From an uncultured Gammaproteobacteria bacterium (lineage in GTDB: Bacteria; Pseudomonadota; Gammaproteobacteria; UBA4575), in NCBI GenBank assembly GCA_963926275.1, contig CAWUWP010000117.1, positions 1 through 37,726 of the forward strand: DNA of 37,726 bases, written 5' to 3'. Positions 14,608 to 21,861 of this stretch are shown here, one piece after another. Position 1 is the first letter of the stretch. Every line of letters begins with the position of its first letter. The translations under genes and the position numbers were made by a program. Under the pieces are notes generated by a model. That model searched no databases. It was given only the letters and a program-made list of their open reading frames with translations, and was not told the origin of the DNA.

Positions 14608-16410
14608 ATGAAGGGAATCCATGCGCGCACCGAAGATCCGCATAAAACTCGCACAGATTGGAGAAATTTACGCCGACTGTTCCCTTATCTGTGGGAATTC
14701 CGTGGGCGTATATTGCTTGCGCTGAGCTGTTTAATGGCAGCAAAAGTGGCCACTGTGGCAGTGCCATTAGTGCTTAAACATATCGTTGATTCGCTTGATA
14801 TGGAACAAATCGCTTTGCAGCTGCCGATTGTGTTGTTGCTAGGTTACGGTGCATTGCGCCTTTCCACTGGATTATTCAATGAATTACGAGATGTATTTTT
14901 TGCACGTGCGCGCTTTCATGCGATCAGGCGTTTGTCGTCTGAGGTGTTGGCTCATCTGCACCAATTATCTCTGCGCTTTCATTTAGACCGTCGCACTGGC
15001 TCGGTCACACGCGATTTAGAGCGTGGCACTCAGAGTCTCAGTTCTTTATCAAACTATTTTGTATTTATCGTGTTTCCAACGATATTTGAAATAACCTTGG
15101 TAACGGCCATTTTATTTGGTTCTTATGATGTGCAATTTACGTTGATTACGTTATCTACCATCACTGTATACGTTATGTTCACAGTCATGTTTACCAACTG
15201 GCGGATGCATTATCGCCACCTGGCTAACAAGTTGGACTCTCAAGCGCACTCGCAAGCGGTCGATAGCTTGCTAAATTATGAAACAGTTAAATATTTTAAT
15301 AATGAAAAATATGAAGTCGATAGATATGCCGACACATTAAGTGAGTGGGAGCAGGCTTCAGTAAAAAGCACTTTCACAATGTCGTTATTAAATTTTGGCC
15401 AGGCAGTCATTATTGCGCTAGGTGTTACGGGGATCATGATATTTGCCGCGCAAGGCGTGGTGGCAGGGGAGATGACTATTGGTGACTTGGTGCTGGTTAA
15501 TGCATTAATGCTACAACTATTTGTGCCTATGAGCATGCTGGGGATTGTGTATCGACAAATTACTTATTCGCTCGCCGATATGGATATGTTGGCTAAGCTA
15601 TTAGAAGAGTCACCAGAAGTACAAGACCAACCCAATGCTAGCGATCTAAAAATAACTAATGGCGAAATACGATTTGATGAGGTGAGCTTTTCCTATACAC
15701 CTGATCGAAAAATACTCGACAAAGTCTCATTAGAAATTAAGCCAGGAGAAAAAGTGGCCATTGTCGGTCCTTCAGGTTCGGGTAAATCGACGATTGCACG
15801 CTTGTTATTTCGATTTTATGACGTTAGTGAAGGTGGCATATTTGTGGATGGAGAAAATATTGCTAGTTGCAGTCAAGATAGTTTGCGTACTCATGTCAGC
15901 ATGGTGCCCCAAGACACCATGCTGTTTAACGAAACTATTCGTTTCAATATTCAGTATGGGAATCCAAAAGCCAGTGAGCAGGATCTCCTGCAGTCGGTGT
16001 CGTTGGCCAATTTAGATAAATTGATCGCTAAGTTGCCTGACGGATTGGATACTGTCGTTGGTGAGCGCGGATTGAAGTTGTCTGGCGGCGAAGTGCAACG
16101 TGTGGCGATTGCACGTGCCATTTTGAAGAAGCCAAAAATTATTGTATTTGATGAAGCGACGTCTAGTCTGGATACAAATACCGAAGTAGCCGTGATGAAG
16201 GCGATTAGAAAGGTCACTAACAATGTTACGTCATTGATGATTGCGCATCGCTTATCGACGATAGTGGATGCCGATAAAATATACGTGGTGGATTCAGGAA
16301 AAGTAGTTGAACAGGGCACTCATGCTCAACTACTGGCAGGGAATCAGCTATACTCGCAGTTATGGGCCTTGCAACAAAAAGACTCAGAAAAAGACCAACC
16401 CACCAGTTAA
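14608..16410 (+). CDS. ABC transporter permease/ATPase fusion, ATM1/HMT1 (AtmA)-type exporter
   Basis: 600 aa. N-terminal 6-TM domain. Walker A GPSGSGKST, signature LSGGEVQR, Walker B IIVFDEATSSLD. N-terminal RRLFPYLWEF typical of the ATM1 clade. Confidence 0.85.
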   Translation: MKGIHARTEDPHKTRTDWRNLRRLFPYLWEFRGRILLALSCLMAAKVATVAVPLVLKHIVDSLDMEQIALQLPIVLLLGYGALRLSTGLFNELRDVFFARARFHAIRRLSSEVLAHLHQLSLRFHLDRRTGSVTRDLERGTQSLSSLSNYFVFIVFPTIFEITLVTAILFGSYDVQFTLITLSTITVYVMFTVMFTNWRMHYRHLANKLDSQAHSQAVDSLLNYETVKYFNNEKYEVDRYADTLSEWEQASVKSTFTMSLLNFGQAVIIALGVTGIMIFAAQGVVAGEMTIGDLVLVNALMLQLFVPMSMLGIVYRQITYSLADMDMLAKLLEESPEVQDQPNASDLKITNGEIRFDEVSFSYTPDRKILDKVSLEIKPGEKVAIVGPSGSGKSTIARLLFRFYDVSEGGIFVDGENIASCSQDSLRTHVSMVPQDTMLFNETIRFNIQYGNPKASEQDLLQSVSLANLDKLIAKLPDGLDTVVGERGLKLSGGEVQRVAIARAILKKPKIIVFDEATSSLDTNTEVAVMKAIRKVTNNVTSLMIAHRLSTIVDADKIYVVDSGKVVEQGTHAQLLAGNQLYSQLWALQQKDSEKDQPTS

Positions 16411-16416
16411 AAAATT

Positions 16417-16761
16417 ATGAGTGACGAATCTGAATTATTAGAGCTTGATGCTAGCGGTGGCTGTGCGAGCGATGAGCCGTTTGCATTACGCGTACTTGGC
16501 GATAGCATGGAGCCAGAGTTTAAAGATGGTTGCATTATTATCATTGATCCTGCTGCCAATGTAGAAAATGGTAGGTATGTTATTGCCGAAATAGATGGAG
16601 AATATATTTTCCGCCAACTAATGCAGGAAGGTGAAAAGTTTTTCTTGCAGGCAATTAACCCGGGTTACAAGCCGGTTGAAATAGAAGGCGCAAGCGTTGT
16701 TCGTGGAGTGATTACACAAAGAGCAGGCGCCAGAAGGACATACCACAAGCACTACGATTAA
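16417..16761 (+). CDS. Stand-alone S24 (LexA/UmuD-like) peptidase domain protein without a DNA-binding domain
   Basis: 114 aa. LRVLGDSMEPEFKDGCIIIIDP contains the Ser nucleophile motif. Where UmuD/LexA carry the catalytic Lys (TVKKL/TVKRL), this protein reads IFRQL. Starts 7 nt after the ABC gene. Confidence 0.7.
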   Translation: MSDESELLELDASGGCASDEPFALRVLGDSMEPEFKDGCIIIIDPAANVENGRYVIAEIDGEYIFRQLMQEGEKFFLQAINPGYKPVEIEGASVVRGVITQRAGARRTYHKHYD

Positions 16762-16969: not shown

Positions 16970-17137
16970 TTATTTTTGATAGCGATTAAAAAATTTCACG
17001 TATAGAAAAAATAATAAAAGATACGCTGCAATCAGCGATAAATTTTGGCCGGTGGTCAGGCTGGGGATATTAAGTGTGACAACACTCGCCAGCATCACGG
17101 CCACTAATGCGAATCGATTTCTTTGCCAAGGTTTCAT
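16970..17137 (-). CDS. Small hypothetical membrane protein
   Basis: I trimmed the ORF to the internal Met (MKPWQRNRFALVAVMLASVVTLNIP...LIAAYLLLFFLYV). Two hydrophobic helices. No family recognised. Confidence 0.3.
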   Translation of the reverse strand: MKPWQRNRFALVAVMLASVVTLNIPSLTTGQNLSLIAAYLLLFFLYVKFFNRYQK

Positions 17138-17344: not shown

Positions 17345-17785
17345 TTAGGTTGCCTTGGGTCGCAAATATTCTTCGGCATGGTCGCCATCAACTTGCTGTG
17401 TGTGTTGGTCTATCATCGGTTGGTCATAGTCATTCCAGCCACGCAAACCGGTTTTCAGTGAGCACGCATACTTGAAGCCAAGTTGCTTGAGAGTGAAAGC
17501 CGCCATGCAACTGCGTTTACCAGAACGACAGATGACCACAATGTTTTTATCACGCGCATTGGATAATTCGGGATCAGTTTCGTCGTAGCCTGCTTCTGAT
17601 GCAGCCTCGAGAATGCCGCGTGGAATGTTAATTGAATTGGCAATATGCATGGCGTGAAATTCATCGGCTTCACGCACATCGATTAATAACAAAGTTTCAT
17701 TGTTATTAAATTTTTGTTCGAGATCCCAAGGCATTAACTCACTAATGTGCCTGGCCGCATCCGCGGCCAGCTGGTCATACGTCTT
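17345..17785 (-). CDS. Single-domain rhodanese sulfurtransferase
   Basis: LLIDVREADEF...IPRG and active-site loop CRSGKRS. I chose the start at MKTYDQ (17785) to avoid overlap with the upstream regulator, which leaves a 10-nt gap. Confidence 0.8.
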   Translation of the reverse strand, partial: KTYDQLAADAARHISELMPWDLEQKFNNNETLLLIDVREADEFHAMHIANSINIPRGILEAASEAGYDETDPELSNARDKNIVVICRSGKRSCMAAFTLKQLGFKYACSLKTGLRGWNDYDQPMIDQHTQQVDGDHAEEYLRPKAT

Positions 17786-17795
17786 CATGGCTAAA

Positions 17796-18461
17796 CTATA
17801 GCGGTGTTTTTTTAGCACGAAGCCCTTGTTCAACGGCTATCACAGCCGCTTCTACGCGAGAATGAATATTTAATTTGCGTAGAATCGCTTTTACGTGCAA
17901 TTTCACTGTGCCATCAGATATACCTAAGTTTCTGGCAATGACTTTATTGCTTTGGCCTTCAGCTAATAGACTTAGAATTTCAGCTTCTCGAGGAGTTAAA
18001 TCATCAATAGGGCTAGGTTCAGACTCTAAGATAGGTTCGCCTTTGACAACACGCGCTAATATCTGCGTTAGATTTGGCGCAACCACGGTTTCACCTTTAA
18101 CAATTTCACGTAATGCCGCGACCACGTCATCAGGTTCCATGTCTTTTAGTAAATAGCCTTTTGCACCATTGCGTAACGCTTCAACTAAATCGCGTTCGTC
18201 ATTACTGGTGGTAAGCATGGCAATTGGTGCTTCAAATTTATTCTGCTGCAATTGCTTTAATACATCTAAGCCAGAAAGGCTGGGCATGCGCATATCGAGC
18301 AAAATAATATCTGGTTTTAATTCTTGAGCTAGGCGTATGCCCTCGTTGCCATCGCCTAATGAGCCAATAACATCAATATTATGTCGTTCCAGTAGGCCTT
18401 GTAGGCCATCCCTGAAGAGAGTGTGATCATCAATAATCAATACGCGTAGGTTAGAGCTCAT
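17796..18461 (-). CDS. NarL/FixJ-family response regulator (REC + LuxR-type HTH)
   Basis: VLIIDDH...DIILLDMRMP receiver motifs. C-terminal LTPREAEILSLLAEGQSNKVIARNLGISDGTVKLHVKAIL. Confidence 0.92.
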   Translation of the reverse strand: MSSNLRVLIIDDHTLFRDGLQGLLERHNIDVIGSLGDGNEGIRLAQELKPDIILLDMRMPSLSGLDVLKQLQQNKFEAPIAMLTTSNDERDLVEALRNGAKGYLLKDMEPDDVVAALREIVKGETVVAPNLTQILARVVKGEPILESEPSPIDDLTPREAEILSLLAEGQSNKVIARNLGISDGTVKLHVKAILRKLNIHSRVEAAVIAVEQGLRAKKTPL

Positions 18462-20007
18462 TATTTATTTGGTCTGCCGTAGGTTGATTGTGTGTGAATT
18501 CTAAAACAATTCGTGTGCCTTCGCCTGGTTCACTTTCTACAGTAAATTCTGCACCAAAGCGCTTAGCCCGATCCCGCATAATCGATAAGCCGATATGCTC
18601 GCCGGCATGATAGCTTGTCTGAGGCTTCGAAAAGCCAACGCCATCATCTTCAATTAACACTTCATAGCTGTCTGAGCCGTTGGCACGCATCATTATGCGC
18701 ACATTCTCGGCATCACTGTGTTTTCTTATGTTAGTGAGTGATTCCTGGATTATACGCAGAATATGGAACTCTGTTTCAGCCGGTAAGGTGGTTTCAGCCC
18801 ATTCATTTTGAAAAAACACTTGAATTTCATCATTTACTTGGCGGAAACGGTCAATTGATTGCTCGACAGATGATATCAGGCTGACTAATATGGTCGGTGA
18901 TCTGAAATGAGAGATTAGTTCACGGATCTCAGTATGAGCCTCATTAATTGACGCTTCGATTCTCTCCATCTCAGCCCAGGTTTGAGCCTCATTGCCTTGG
19001 TGTAATGTTTCGTCTAACACGCGGACTTGAAAGCGAATGCTGGTTAGCGTTTGCGCCAGTGAGTCATGCAGCTCATTTGAAATGTGGTTGCGTTCACGCA
19101 AAATTGATAAAGTCGTTGCCTCTTCATCTAAATGCGATTTTTCGATAGCGGCACCTAAGTGTCGGCCAATACTGGTAAAGAGCTCATCAAAATCTTCAAA
19201 ATCATTTAATGAGTTTTTATGGACATAGAGGTTATACGCGCCCAATAATTTTTCTTGGTATTGCAGCGGCACAACCAGTATGCAAACTTGTTTGTCATCG
19301 AAATATTTCTTGCAGAACGCATCATCGCAATCTAAAAGTTTTATATTTAATATTCCAAAGCCATCTTCTTGAGTGTCACTGGAATGATTGATTAAACAAT
19401 GTCGTGCGTGCTCTGCAATGATTTCTTCGTTGCTATTGATGTGTGTGAGTAGTTCAACTTCACTGTCATTATGGACTAGATAAGCGACGGCAGCTTGTGC
19501 ACCGACAAGCTCAGTCATATTAAAAAGGAACTGACTTAGTAATGAGTCCACATCCCTTGATAAGTTAATACTGTTAGCGACATCATACAAAATTGATAAT
19601 GAGCGAGTTTTTTGTGCGATGTAGTTGGTATGTTTATGTACTTGATTTTCAGCGCTGGTCGACAGGGATTGCAACATCTCACCAATGAAATGTAAGTCTT
19701 GATAAACATCTTCATAGTCACCCATGGGCTTGTCTAAAAATTTTGCATCAAGATCTCCGGAACGAATCATCTGTGTCCAATCTTTAATACGTTGTGCAGG
19801 GACGACGTAACTAGACCACAAATTCCAAAATGCAATTACAATCAGCACTAGGCCTGCGCATAAAATCAACCAAGACCAAGCAACGATAAATATACTGAAT
19901 ATCGATAAGCCTAACCCTAATGCCGCACTGGCCGCTGGCAAGTTGGCATGGTTGGCTAGTTTTACTAGAAATGATTGCACTGTGGTTGAATTAGATTTAA
20001 TTCGCAC
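18451..20007 (-). CDS. Sensor histidine kinase: TM hairpin, HAMP-like, GAF, HisKA_3, HATPase
   Basis: Two adjacent TM helices with no periplasmic loop. GAF-like segment (SILYDVANSINLS...LVGAQAAVAYL). H-box ISNELHDSLAQTLTSI. ATPase motifs (IEDDGVGF, GLSIMRDRA). GTG start. 11-nt overlap with the regulator. Confidence 0.88.
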   Translation of the reverse strand: MRIKSNSTTVQSFLVKLANHANLPAASAALGLGLSIFSIFIVAWSWLILCAGLVLIVIAFWNLWSSYVVPAQRIKDWTQMIRSGDLDAKFLDKPMGDYEDVYQDLHFIGEMLQSLSTSAENQVHKHTNYIAQKTRSLSILYDVANSINLSRDVDSLLSQFLFNMTELVGAQAAVAYLVHNDSEVELLTHINSNEEIIAEHARHCLINHSSDTQEDGFGILNIKLLDCDDAFCKKYFDDKQVCILVVPLQYQEKLLGAYNLYVHKNSLNDFEDFDELFTSIGRHLGAAIEKSHLDEEATTLSILRERNHISNELHDSLAQTLTSIRFQVRVLDETLHQGNEAQTWAEMERIEASINEAHTEIRELISHFRSPTILVSLISSVEQSIDRFRQVNDEIQVFFQNEWAETTLPAETEFHILRIIQESLTNIRKHSDAENVRIMMRANGSDSYEVLIEDDGVGFSKPQTSYHAGEHIGLSIMRDRAKRFGAEFTVESEPGEGTRIVLEFTHNQPTADQINNEL

Positions 20008-20022
20008 CAGATTTATGGGTCG

Positions 20023-20355
20023 TTATTTTTCTGCAGTACTACTAGCGGAGTAATTAGGGTCGTTAGGGTTGAGGAATACAAAGTGAAACTGTTTCGGTTC
20101 CAGTTCTGCGTAATCAACTACCGTGCCTTTTAATAATTCATAACTAGTTTTAGCAATAACGATATCAACGCCATTTGAGTGATAGCTGATATCTTCACCC
20201 TTAGCATTGCCTACGTCATCAAAACCCATGCCGTAATGAAATGATCCATTTGGCTTTACTGTGACAGCAATACGCAAAGGCAGCTTGTCGGTTTGTGATT
20301 CTACGGCTGACTTTTTAACTTGTTGCGCAGCGATTTCTGTAATTGATACTTCCAT
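20023..20355 (-). CDS. Cys-less A-type-carrier (HesB/IscA) fold protein, DsrR-like
   Basis: 110 aa with no cysteine. LPLRIAVTVKPNGSFHYGMGFDD...VDYAELEPKQFHFVFLNPNDPNY matches the IscA fold but lacks the Cys ligands, as described for DsrR. Confidence 0.65.
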   Translation of the reverse strand: MEVSITEIAAQQVKKSAVESQTDKLPLRIAVTVKPNGSFHYGMGFDDVGNAKGEDISYHSNGVDIVIAKTSYELLKGTVVDYAELEPKQFHFVFLNPNDPNYSASSTAEK

Positions 20356-20409
20356 AGTGTGTAACTTCCAAAATATAGTGTTGAGACTATTATAACTGTA
20401 TTCGTGTGT

Positions 20410-21777
20410 TTAAGCCTGCTTGGATTGGCAAGATTCGACAAAATTCAAAAACTGCAAGATCCATGGGTTATGAATGCTATGGCGCTGATGCGCATAGCAT
20501 GCAAGCGTATTGTGCAGATGGATACCATCCTGTTTATTCTGAATACCGCTACCACGTGACATATCAAATACCATTGTAGTGTCTTGTTTCAATCCTGATA
20601 AATGCGAATAGTGGAATTCATGTGCATTAATCGGTGATGATGGGCTGCTTGGCCAAAATGCATGCTGGTTTTCACTGAACTGAATGTAGCCACGCCCTTG
20701 AGGCGTTGGTGTCATCACACAGTCTGCGTCAATCACACCGGCCATTGCTGCGCGATCACCTTGATATTGTATATTGTTACATAGATACATTAGCCCGCCA
20801 CATTCCGCATAAGCGGGTAACCCTTGCGTCAGTGCGTTATTAATTTGTGAGCGCATTGATTGATTGTCTTGTAATGCTTGCATACATTTTTCAGGGAAAC
20901 CTCCACCAATAAATAGTGCATCTACATTAGGTAAATCTTTATCATTCAATGTATCAAAAGGAACTAACGTGGCGCCTAGCTGCTGAAAAATGTCTAAGTC
21001 ATCCGGGTAATAAAAACCAAACGCACGATCTTTTGCATAACCAATGCGTAAATCAAATGATGCGCCCACTTTTTGAGGGGTAATATCTGCTGATGGTATC
21101 GGCGTGGAAAGCTCTATGAGCGCGTCAAGATCTACTTGGTCGCCAATCATGTTTGCTAGTGACTGGGTTTTCTCAATGGCTTGCTTATCTTCATTGCTGG
21201 GAATTAAGCCGAGGTACCTTTCTTCTAGCGTTAATGCATCGTCACGACGTATTGCGCCTAGTACGGTTAAGTCTGTGTAGTGTTCAACGACTTGGTGAAG
21301 TTTTTTCTCATGGCGACCGCCACCAACAAAATTCAAAATCACCCCTTGAATATTCACTTCAGGGTCAAATTGTTGATAACCCAGTAGCAGGGGAGCAATG
21401 CCACGAGTTGTGCCGCGGCAATCCAATACCAGTACCACGGGGGATTTAAGTAATTTAGCTAATGCGGCATTACTGTTGCTGCCATCTAGTGCTAAGCCAT
21501 CATAAAGACCTTTATTCGCTTCGATGATGGAAATGTCTGCATCCACACTTTTGCGATGAAACAATTCTAGTATTTCTTGATTGGATTGTGTCCAGAAGTC
21601 TAGGTTATAACAATTACGCCCGGAGGCGGTTGCCAACCACATTGGATCGATATAATCCGGGCCTTTTTTGAAAGGCTGAACAATTTTATTTTTCGCACGT
21701 AGCGCAGCACAAATTCCTGTGCTGACAATGGTTTTTCCAGAAGACTTATGCGCGGCGGAGAAAAGTATCTGGCCCAT
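20410..21777 (-). CDS. Cobyrinate a,c-diamide synthase family amidotransferase (CobB/CbiA; DsrN-like by context)
   Basis: 455 aa. N-terminal P-loop SAAHKSSGKT and KKGPDYIDP. C-terminal glutaminase Cys in YAECGGLMYL. No other cobalamin genes in the window. Confidence 0.85.
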   Translation of the reverse strand: MGQILFSAAHKSSGKTIVSTGICAALRAKNKIVQPFKKGPDYIDPMWLATASGRNCYNLDFWTQSNQEILELFHRKSVDADISIIEANKGLYDGLALDGSNSNAALAKLLKSPVVLVLDCRGTTRGIAPLLLGYQQFDPEVNIQGVILNFVGGGRHEKKLHQVVEHYTDLTVLGAIRRDDALTLEERYLGLIPSNEDKQAIEKTQSLANMIGDQVDLDALIELSTPIPSADITPQKVGASFDLRIGYAKDRAFGFYYPDDLDIFQQLGATLVPFDTLNDKDLPNVDALFIGGGFPEKCMQALQDNQSMRSQINNALTQGLPAYAECGGLMYLCNNIQYQGDRAAMAGVIDADCVMTPTPQGRGYIQFSENQHAFWPSSPSSPINAHEFHYSHLSGLKQDTTMVFDMSRGSGIQNKQDGIHLHNTLACYAHQRHSIHNPWILQFLNFVESCQSKQA

Positions 21778-21861
21778 GGCGTTGTATGTTTTAATAAGGT
21801 CCAGCGCAAAGCGTACTATATAAACAATTCAATAAGCACTACCCGTAATCGATAGCTATTT

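Follow-up and report, generated by a model that had tools for sequence, protein, structure and literature searches.

A NarQ/NarL-like two-component system and a rhodanese at the tail of gammaproteobacterial dsr clusters: candidates for control of sulfur oxidation by a cytoplasmic signal

DsrN reportedly amidates the siroheme of the sulfite reductase DsrAB, and DsrR of Allochromatium vinosum is said to be a Cys-less IscA-like protein that affects dsr expression, an effect that to our knowledge is known only as a post-transcriptional one. Moreover, we know of no transcriptional regulator of the dsr genes that has been identified in any sulfur oxidizer. Here, we describe a locus that offers a candidate for such a regulator. 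It lies on a contig of 37,726 nucleotides (CAWUWP010000117.1 of the assembly GCA_963926275.1; hereinafter the window, meaning the whole of this stretch) from an uncultured gammaproteobacterium of the UBA4575 lineage, and comprises dsrN, dsrR and the genes for a NarQ-like sensor histidine kinase, a NarL-type response regulator and a single-domain rhodanese. In A. vinosum, dsrN and dsrR stand near the end of the operon dsrABEFHCMKLJOPNRS (PMC4136832, PMC4287430).

The kinase and the regulator recall the NarQ/NarX-NarL systems of Escherichia coli. A pair of the same families that responds to sulfide, NreBC, is encoded within an sqr-pdo cluster of Bacillus licheniformis (PMC9918477), and thiol-based sensors of sulfane sulfur are represented by SqrR/BigR, CstR and sHdrR/SoxR of Hyphomicrobium (PMC12423496). 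The distribution of DsrR has been treated in a paper in which the terms kinase, regulator, two-component and rhodanese do not occur (PMC11406059). The initial annotation of the locus, made from the letters of the window, held that the arrangement had not been characterized; likewise, we found no paper describing the module in the open-access literature, and as subscription journals lie largely outside this coverage the word “undescribed” is provisional.

Using comparative genomics, profile searches and structure models, we arrive at the reading, which we favor by a modest degree, that the tail of the dsr cluster encodes a two-component system through which a cytoplasmic sulfur or redox signal controls sulfur-oxidation genes.

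A signaling trio at the end of the dsr cluster

Searching species-representative genomes with an alignment of the kinase recovered more than 516 relatives, of which the best 80 come from uncultured marine Gammaproteobacteria and from metagenome-assembled genomes (MAGs) labeled Thiohalomonadales, Thiohalobacter, Thiogranum, Thioalkalispiraceae, Thiohalophilus, Arenicellales and Chromatiales. The dominant gene order in the related loci is dsrC..K-L-J-O-P-N-R-kinase-regulator-rhodanese, followed by a convergent gene for an S24-domain protein and one for an Atm1-type ABC exporter. Upstream of the kinase gene, dsrR was found in 59 of the 62 loci with enough flank for the count; downstream, the regulator gene was present in 70/70 loci and the rhodanese gene in 57/70, with the regulator being 64–97% identical in the relatives. 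With the order recurring in dozens of genomes, chance can be dismissed as the cause of the juxtaposition. Far from being confined to this window, the trio of kinase, regulator and rhodanese extends dsr clusters widely among the Gammaproteobacteria. The initial annotation had contrasted the locus with dsr clusters that end in dsrN-dsrR, proposing that the pair here leads into the three signaling genes instead; this was mistaken, since in most relatives the pair both ends the dsr cluster and precedes the same kinase, regulator and rhodanese.

The phyletic pattern of the kinase points in the same direction. In a sample of the class comprising 201 genomes, one per family, with dsrA taken as found at E <= 1e-100 and the kinase at E <= 1e-60, both were found in 59 genomes, the kinase only in 6, dsrA only in 7 and neither in 129. 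The kinase is hence present in 59/66 dsrA-positive vs 6/135 dsrA-negative genomes, counts in which related genomes are not independent, though they represent separate families. In at least 31 genomes of this sample the kinase gene lies 4–16 kb from dsrA on the same contig. The 13 exceptions to this pairing could show other linkages of the system, or its replacement.

The genome to which the window belongs (1.34 Mb in 129 contigs, 83% complete, 41% G+C) carries the remainder of the cluster on two other contigs: C34 has dsrA, B, E, F, H, C, M, K and the 5' part of dsrL, and C36 has the rest of dsrL along with dsrJ, O and P. The DsrAB-type sulfite reductase and DsrEFH/C, with which the initial annotation had associated the locus, are thus all encoded in this genome. 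On C36, dsrP is followed only by an 80-aa open reading frame (ORF), with neither dsrN nor dsrR. Closed genomes of the window's genus have the five genes 70–83 kb from dsrA, beside a divergent rimO/MiaB-like gene. A further genome (G019) shows what looks like an intermediate state: dsrLJOP are followed by an isocitrate dehydrogenase gene and a rimO-like gene on the opposite strand, beyond which come dsrN-dsrR-kinase-regulator-rhodanese. From these gene orders, the break fell between dsrP and dsrN and not between dsrR and the kinase gene. The state of the window's genus is a derived one: the five genes have been split off from dsrP and represent the detached 3' portion of the reverse dissimilatory sulfite reductase (rDSR) cluster of a marine sulfur oxidizer. 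What is specific to this window is that dsrN-dsrR was kept with the signaling genes upon the splitting of the cluster. The kinase gene stands directly after dsrR in the window's genus (15 nt away in the window), in G019 and in a genome of another family (G026). In G002, a 90% complete genome of the same genus, dsrA, dsrN, dsrR and the kinase gene were not found, and neither were the orthologues of the neighboring rimO-like and ABC genes; as these neighbors are missing too, the region may be unassembled, and this joint absence was not used.

A tblastn search of the 83%-complete assembly with the regulator recovered just three receiver-domain genes besides its own, and not one further HisKA_3 kinase. 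No HisKA_3/NarL pair and no NarL-type regulator other than those of the module were accordingly found in the assembly; this role as the sole such pair among very few two-component genes fits an important function of the system.

The identification of the first two genes as dsrN and dsrR, and not as cobB and iscA, is supported by several lines of evidence, in agreement with the initial annotation. Hidden Markov model (HMM) scores of the DsrN protein are 433 bits for CfbB (below its cut-off), 421 bits for CobB PRK01077 and 410 bits for CobB TIGR00379; as CfbB, CobB and DsrN are not separable by such scores, the assignment relies on synteny and phyletic pattern. Orthologues of dsrN and dsrR directly follow dsrJ-O-P in six sister genera and another family, and dsrP is likewise followed directly by them in genomes of other orders. 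Among 41 relatives the CobB-family gene goes one-to-one with dsrA, the sole exception being a low-scoring copy in a dsrA-negative genome. It is a single copy in the window's genome, where a cysG-type methyltransferase is present and cobQ and cbiF/cobM were not found at 83% completeness; five closed genomes from the genus and the family have exactly one CobB-family gene each, and cobQ was not found in them. Within the window there are no cobalamin genes other than the CobB-family gene, as the initial annotation had noted. The pattern disagrees with a cobalamin-type CobB, the alternative considered there, and the protein is probably a siroheme amidase.

The DsrR protein has zero Cys in its 110 residues and matches the Pfam Fe-S_biosyn model with 30.9 bits, which bears out the earlier description of an IscA fold devoid of Cys. 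Its best PDB match is A. vinosum DsrR (2k4z; E 1.2e-23, 86.6 bits), followed at a distance by the A-type carrier HI1723 (36.8 bits) and IscA (1x0g, 20.1 bits), and it falls below the cut-offs of the IscA, SufA and ErpA equivalog models. Orthologues are Cys-free in 56/72 cases and share a conserved C-terminal NPNDP motif. Complex prediction of DsrR with kinase residues 70–300 gave a score of 0.05, which counts neither for nor against binding.

The list of ORFs of the window and their translations place the five genes head-to-tail and co-directionally on the minus strand (Table 1). Successive genes are separated by 54 nt (dsrN/dsrR), 15 nt (dsrR/kinase), an 11-nt overlap (kinase/regulator) and 7 nt (regulator/rhodanese). 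These values agree with the initial annotation except for the last, given there as 10 nt, since the rhodanese ATG at 17788 gives 7.

Table 1. Features of the module in the window
Feature	Coordinates	Strand	Description
dsrN	20410..21777	-	455 aa; Pfam GATase_3 + CbiA/AAA_26 (CobB/CbiA-family glutamine amidotransferase, probably siroheme amidase)
dsrR	20023..20355	-	110 aa; Pfam Fe-S_biosyn (IscA fold), Cys-less
NarQ-like sensor histidine kinase	18451..20007	-	518 aa; Pfam HisKA_3 + HATPase_c; NarQ is the best NCBIfam model
Kinase transmembrane hairpin	19816..19935	-	two helices, ~residues 25-64; sequence and AlphaFold2 model
Kinase GAF-fold input domain (predicted)	19138..19560	-	~residues 150-290; domain model and Foldseek
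Kinase Cys204 codon	19396-19398	-	
Kinase Cys227 codon	19327-19329	-	
Kinase core	18496..19095	-	HisKA_3 residues 305-371 and HATPase_c residues 415-504; Pfam
NarL-type response regulator	17796..18461	-	221 aa; Pfam Response_reg + GerE/LuxR helix-turn-helix
Single-domain cytoplasmic rhodanese	17345..17788	-	147 aa; Pfam Rhodanese; loop C87-RSGKRS; ATG at 17788
Possible sixth gene	16970..17137	-	55-aa two-helix membrane peptide (MKPWQRNRF...); 207 nt 3' of the rhodanese gene
dsrN / rimO-MiaB-like divergent intergenic region	21778..21861	.	84 bp

Architecture of the kinase and its partners

The N-terminus of the kinase consists of two hydrophobic helices linked by a loop of a few residues, and the full-length AlphaFold2 model (predicted local distance difference test score, pLDDT, of 82) likewise has helices at 7–37 and 45–82; the claim of the initial annotation that there is no periplasmic loop hence stands. 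In the alignment, the kinases of sister genera lack both transmembrane (TM) helices, which implies that membrane anchoring is dispensable and that the input must be cytoplasmic. By this comparison, the kinase in the window appears to be membrane-tethered and nothing more, and those of the sister genera are predicted to be fully soluble.

With E. coli NarQ, BLASTP gives 23% identity (E 6e-30) in an alignment from TM2 to the C-terminus, running through TM2, HAMP, signaling helix, central module, HisKA_3 and HATPase_c, in which NarQ is ~45 residues shorter in the central module. The kinase thus has the HAMP/signaling helix/GAF-like/HisKA_3/HATPase_c architecture of NarX and NarQ; their periplasmic four-helix sensor domain with its P-box is absent from it. 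It also misses the curated equivalog cut-offs for both NarQ (178 bits vs 553) and NarX (118 vs 578). Similarly, the regulator, with Pfam matches to Response_reg (101.5 bits) and GerE (78.2 bits), scores 237 bits against the NarL equivalog model with a cut-off of 250, and is therefore a family member and not a NarL equivalog. The NarL-type partner and the rhodanese with a CRSGKRS loop of the initial annotation are both confirmed by these and the Rhodanese Pfam matches and by the loop as read in the sequence.

That NarQ and NarL are nevertheless the best NCBIfam matches of the two proteins could mean that this is an ordinary NarX/NarL-type regulator responding to nitrate, nitrite or general anaerobiosis, its adjacency to dsr being functionally meaningless. 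We hold this to be highly improbable. Apart from the missing periplasmic nitrate-binding domain, and in sister genera the missing TM helices too, a search of 25 family genomes yielded no narG, and a true NarX-like kinase stands beside narG in G025; together these facts make nitrate sensing unlikely. Co-occurrence with dsrA and the fixed place after dsrR across many families are likewise at odds with a meaningless adjacency.

The input domain was assigned by fold. On the window protein the Pfam GAF models stay below threshold (GAF_3 at 21.9 bits vs 27); in an orthologue from a MAG labeled Thiohalomonas denitrificans (L087), GAF_2, GAF and HAMP all exceed it. As the full-length model gave only kinase-core matches in Foldseek, a domain-only AlphaFold2 model (pLDDT 74) was searched against the PDB, and its top matches are all GAF domains (TM-score 0.62–0.69, E ~1e-6). 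These models and searches suggest that the input domain has a GAF fold; the cytoplasmic GAF domain of the initial annotation thus survives as a predicted fold, and as a Pfam hit above threshold in orthologues and not in the window protein itself.

Within this domain, Cys227 is conserved in 78/81 kinase orthologues and Cys204 in 64/81, with an extra Cys two residues after Cys204 in 55/81; most lineages have CLCG and then a further C ~20 residues on. The number of cysteines varies between lineages, and hence a two-cysteine polysulfide (or disulfide) bridge cannot be the universal mechanism.

The structural matches of the domain, which are of 10–18% identity, include bilin-binding GAF domains, which attach the ligand via a conserved Cys, and the heme-binding GAF domain of DosS. 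With one Cys nearly invariant and the kinase gene placed two genes after that of the siroheme amidase, the domain might be suspected of sensing a tetrapyrrole (siroheme, siroamide or heme), matching cofactor supply by DsrN to the synthesis of DsrAB. However, at such identities the matches amount to the GAF fold in general, the domain shows no recognized tetrapyrrole-binding motif, and the linkage of the trio is to the whole dsr cluster and not to dsrN specifically, the trio also occurring with no dsrN nearby. The dedicated circuit for sulfur or siroheme status that the initial annotation suggested is a reasonable proposal; nothing in the analysis favors siroheme in particular, and we judge a tetrapyrrole signal to be very unlikely.

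The catalytic core resembles that of DesK in a structure match. Its H-box reads ELHDSLAQ with His314, and H314, N426 and the DDG at 454–456 are invariant in alignments of both 12 and 49 sequences; with H-box, N-box and G-boxes all preserved, the kinase is probably active. A sensor-less form occurs as well: in a dsrA-positive genome (G076:C1:316809-317429), only the kinase core (residues 302–507) was matched, in a 305-aa frame.

The rhodanese matches Pfam Rhodanese with 64 bits and has no signal peptide visible in its sequence. The loop CRSGnRS is conserved in 60 orthologues, and the protein is predicted to adopt the rhodanese fold with the catalytic Cys in a six-residue loop of the sulfurtransferase type.

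Transcription, upstream DNA and the proposed circuit

Contigs identical to the window were found in four marine metatranscriptome runs from four studies. These RNA-library contigs bridge the dsrR/kinase (19942–20094), kinase/regulator (e.g., 18277–18725) and regulator/rhodanese (17582–17898) junctions, and one piece lies inside dsrN; for most of dsrN and for the dsrN/dsrR junction, where such contigs are missing, nothing about expression follows. The contigs lend modest support to expression in situ and to co-transcription, and in this respect favor, from dsrR onward, the single operon envisaged in the initial annotation. No terminator-like hairpin was detected between the five genes in a scan of the coding strand, and the counts of the promoter/terminator scan are at or under shuffle expectation.

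The 84-bp intergenic region upstream of dsrN (21778–21861) contains GCTATCGATTACGGGTAGTGC, a block present nowhere else in the assembly, followed by TATAGT, an arrangement that is conserved in the genus. GCTATCGATTACGGGTAGTGC overlaps the -35 position relative to the -10-like hexamer TATAGT, which is the geometry expected of an activator-dependent promoter, and we infer that the region holds the promoter of the unit.

The ~170 nt upstream of dsrA (contig C34, L004:6880-7040) contain three nearly invariant blocks, YATATCCCnGTYGAGATAA, CCGCnCCCCATAGGTAGGATTTTG and CAACTCTAGACT, with variable spacers between them; these are conserved across the genus and G019, and are unique in the genome. The region could be an operator, or a leader tied to the post-transcriptional control reported for DsrR. 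The conserved dsrA leader folds no better than shuffles (z -0.19), and no Rfam family was found on the window or the dsrA contig. The region has one NarL-type heptamer, TACCTAT. Upstream of dsrA such heptamers (TACYYMT) number 21 vs ~9 expected, and upstream of dsrN there is no excess; because the excess stems from one conserved heptamer common to related genomes, it is not usable as evidence. A genome-wide search, with mismatches allowed, for GCTATCGATTACGGGTAGTGC and the three dsrA blocks returned the original sites and a few four-mismatch matches inside coding regions only, from which no regulon can be inferred.

Other genes surround the unit. The possible sixth gene downstream of the rhodanese gene encodes a peptide that shows 46–73% identity to peptides at the same position in relatives. 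On the plus strand, convergent with the module, 14608–16761 holds a gene for an Atm1-type ABC exporter and then one for a stand-alone S24-domain protein. A convergent downstream S24 gene is present in 44/61 related loci from several orders, often with the exporter alongside, and the exporter/S24 pair may be connected in function to the dsr tail, for instance in the handling of thiol-bound sulfur. It might accordingly be argued that the system chiefly controls these neighbors, i.e., the exporter, the S24 gene and the small membrane peptide, and thereby, for example, the export or handling of thiol-bound sulfur, and not dsrAB. This we consider quite unlikely: dsrR upstream is more constant than these neighbors, the exporter pair is encoded on the other strand, and no shared operator was found.

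Returning to control of the sulfur-oxidation genes, the reading that we favor, we propose the following circuit. The cytoplasmic GAF domain would sense an intracellular sulfur or redox signal, most likely sulfane sulfur or a persulfide on the GAF cysteine(s), Cys227 foremost; the rhodanese would load or unload this sulfur; the kinase would phosphorylate the regulator; and the regulator would adjust the transcription of dsr and related sulfur-oxidation genes, its own unit included. Given the adjacent rhodanese, the most economical guess as to the signal is sulfane sulfur, read by thiol chemistry at Cys227 together with its partner cysteines in the lineages that have them.

The part of the rhodanese in this circuit has a competitor. 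The protein may have a metabolic role instead of, or in addition to, that in sensing; in the former case it might be a metabolic sulfur carrier and not a co-sensor, standing in for Rhd_2599 of A. vinosum and feeding sulfane sulfur to TusA, DsrE2, DsrEFH and DsrC while being merely co-expressed with the signaling genes, a role compatible with regulation of dsr by the two-component system. Cytoplasmic rhodaneses reportedly take part in the sulfur relay of the A. vinosum rDSR pathway, and the conserved loop is of the sulfurtransferase type. In the window's genome, contig C52 (L141:1083-2890) has a small cluster of a dsrE2-like gene, tusA and a gene for a pyridine-nucleotide-disulfide oxidoreductase, and a second tusA is on contig C6. 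Unlike tusA-dsrE2 of A. vinosum, the dsrE2-like-tusA pair has no adjoining rhodanese gene, and a single, distant paralogue of the rhodanese was found in the genome. Yet the rhodanese gene of the module travels with the kinase and the regulator and not with tusA or dsrEFH, even in a locus away from dsr (L047), and it is missing after the regulator in 13/70 loci. We regard the purely metabolic role as somewhat unlikely.

A number of further observations weigh against control of the dsr genes by the trio. Seven genomes of the class sample have dsrA and no kinase match (G033, G046, G114, G118, G169, G196 and G210), six have the kinase and no dsrA match (G097, G099, G101, G156, G162 and G217), two of them being listed as 100% complete, and in three loci the kinase lies away from dsr. 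In most other genera of the family, dsrR is separated from the kinase gene by 0.3–6 kb of unrelated genes, which encode an SRPBCC protein, MtgA and a TonB-dependent receptor. The cysteine pattern of the proposed sensor differs as well, the window's genus having C204 and C227 and the sister genera C227 alone. The RNA-library contigs do not bridge the dsrN/dsrR junction, and as they may contain carried-over DNA they are no proof of a single transcript. No repeated operator-like motif was found, GCTATCGATTACGGGTAGTGC and the dsrA blocks being each unique and mutually unlike. Finally, the gene identities, the domain architecture, the conserved gene order, the co-occurrence with dsrA and the presence in RNA libraries are observed, and the signal, the regulon and the role of the rhodanese, which could be purely metabolic, are inferred.

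Nevertheless, judging from gene content and order, the trio is the best candidate for the unknown dsr switch of sulfur-oxidizing Gammaproteobacteria. A stronger version, which we put forward as a speculation and think rather unlikely as a whole, would make the kinase and the regulator the master switch of rDSR-type sulfur oxidation in most of these bacteria, with sulfane sulfur read by the conserved GAF cysteine(s), a dedicated rhodanese donating or erasing this sulfur and DsrR assisting the signaling unit. Were it true, the unexplained regulatory phenotype of A. vinosum DsrR would be part of the same circuit.

Comparison with known systems

By supplying a concrete candidate regulator, the module renders the open question of dsr regulation directly testable. 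Its lineage occurs in marine metatranscriptomes, and the module could therefore also mark how pelagic and symbiotic sulfur oxidizers tune a globally important pathway. It would also exemplify a periplasmic anion sensor that became cytoplasmic when its sensor domain was lost, along with the membrane anchor in some lineages.

Like the A. vinosum dsr tail, the locus has a gene for a CobB-family amidotransferase followed by one for a Cys-less IscA-fold protein, and in sister genera this pair comes after dsrJOP. Unlike in A. vinosum, the pair is on another contig than dsrA-P and is followed by kinase, regulator and rhodanese instead of dsrS.

With NreBC the module shares a cytoplasmic HisKA_3 kinase and a NarL-family regulator encoded in a sulfur-oxidation cluster, and NreBC thereby sets a precedent for a response to sulfide. 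NreB senses through a PAS domain, whereas the predicted input here is a GAF domain; the settings differ too, being gammaproteobacterial rDSR in the one case and Firmicutes sqr/pdo in the other. The proposed logic, in which sulfane sulfur on conserved cysteines would control sulfur-oxidation genes, is that of SqrR/BigR, CstR and sHdrR/SoxR. However, those are one-component repressors of the ArsR/CsoR type, and here a two-component kinase with GAF cysteines is involved, so that the likeness is a functional conjecture.

The closest relationship is to NarQ/NarX-NarL of E. coli, with which the module has in common the overlapping kinase and regulator genes, the kinase architecture from TM2 onward and the NarL-like regulator. 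It differs from NarQ in lacking a periplasmic sensor, in the GAF domain being ~45 residues larger and in having conserved cysteines that NarQ lacks in that stretch, and from NarQ/NarL in its genomic partner, which is dsr and not nar, with both proteins below the NarQ/NarL equivalog cut-offs. The novelty thus lies in the input and in the genomic context, both of them new for a system of the NarQ/NarL type.

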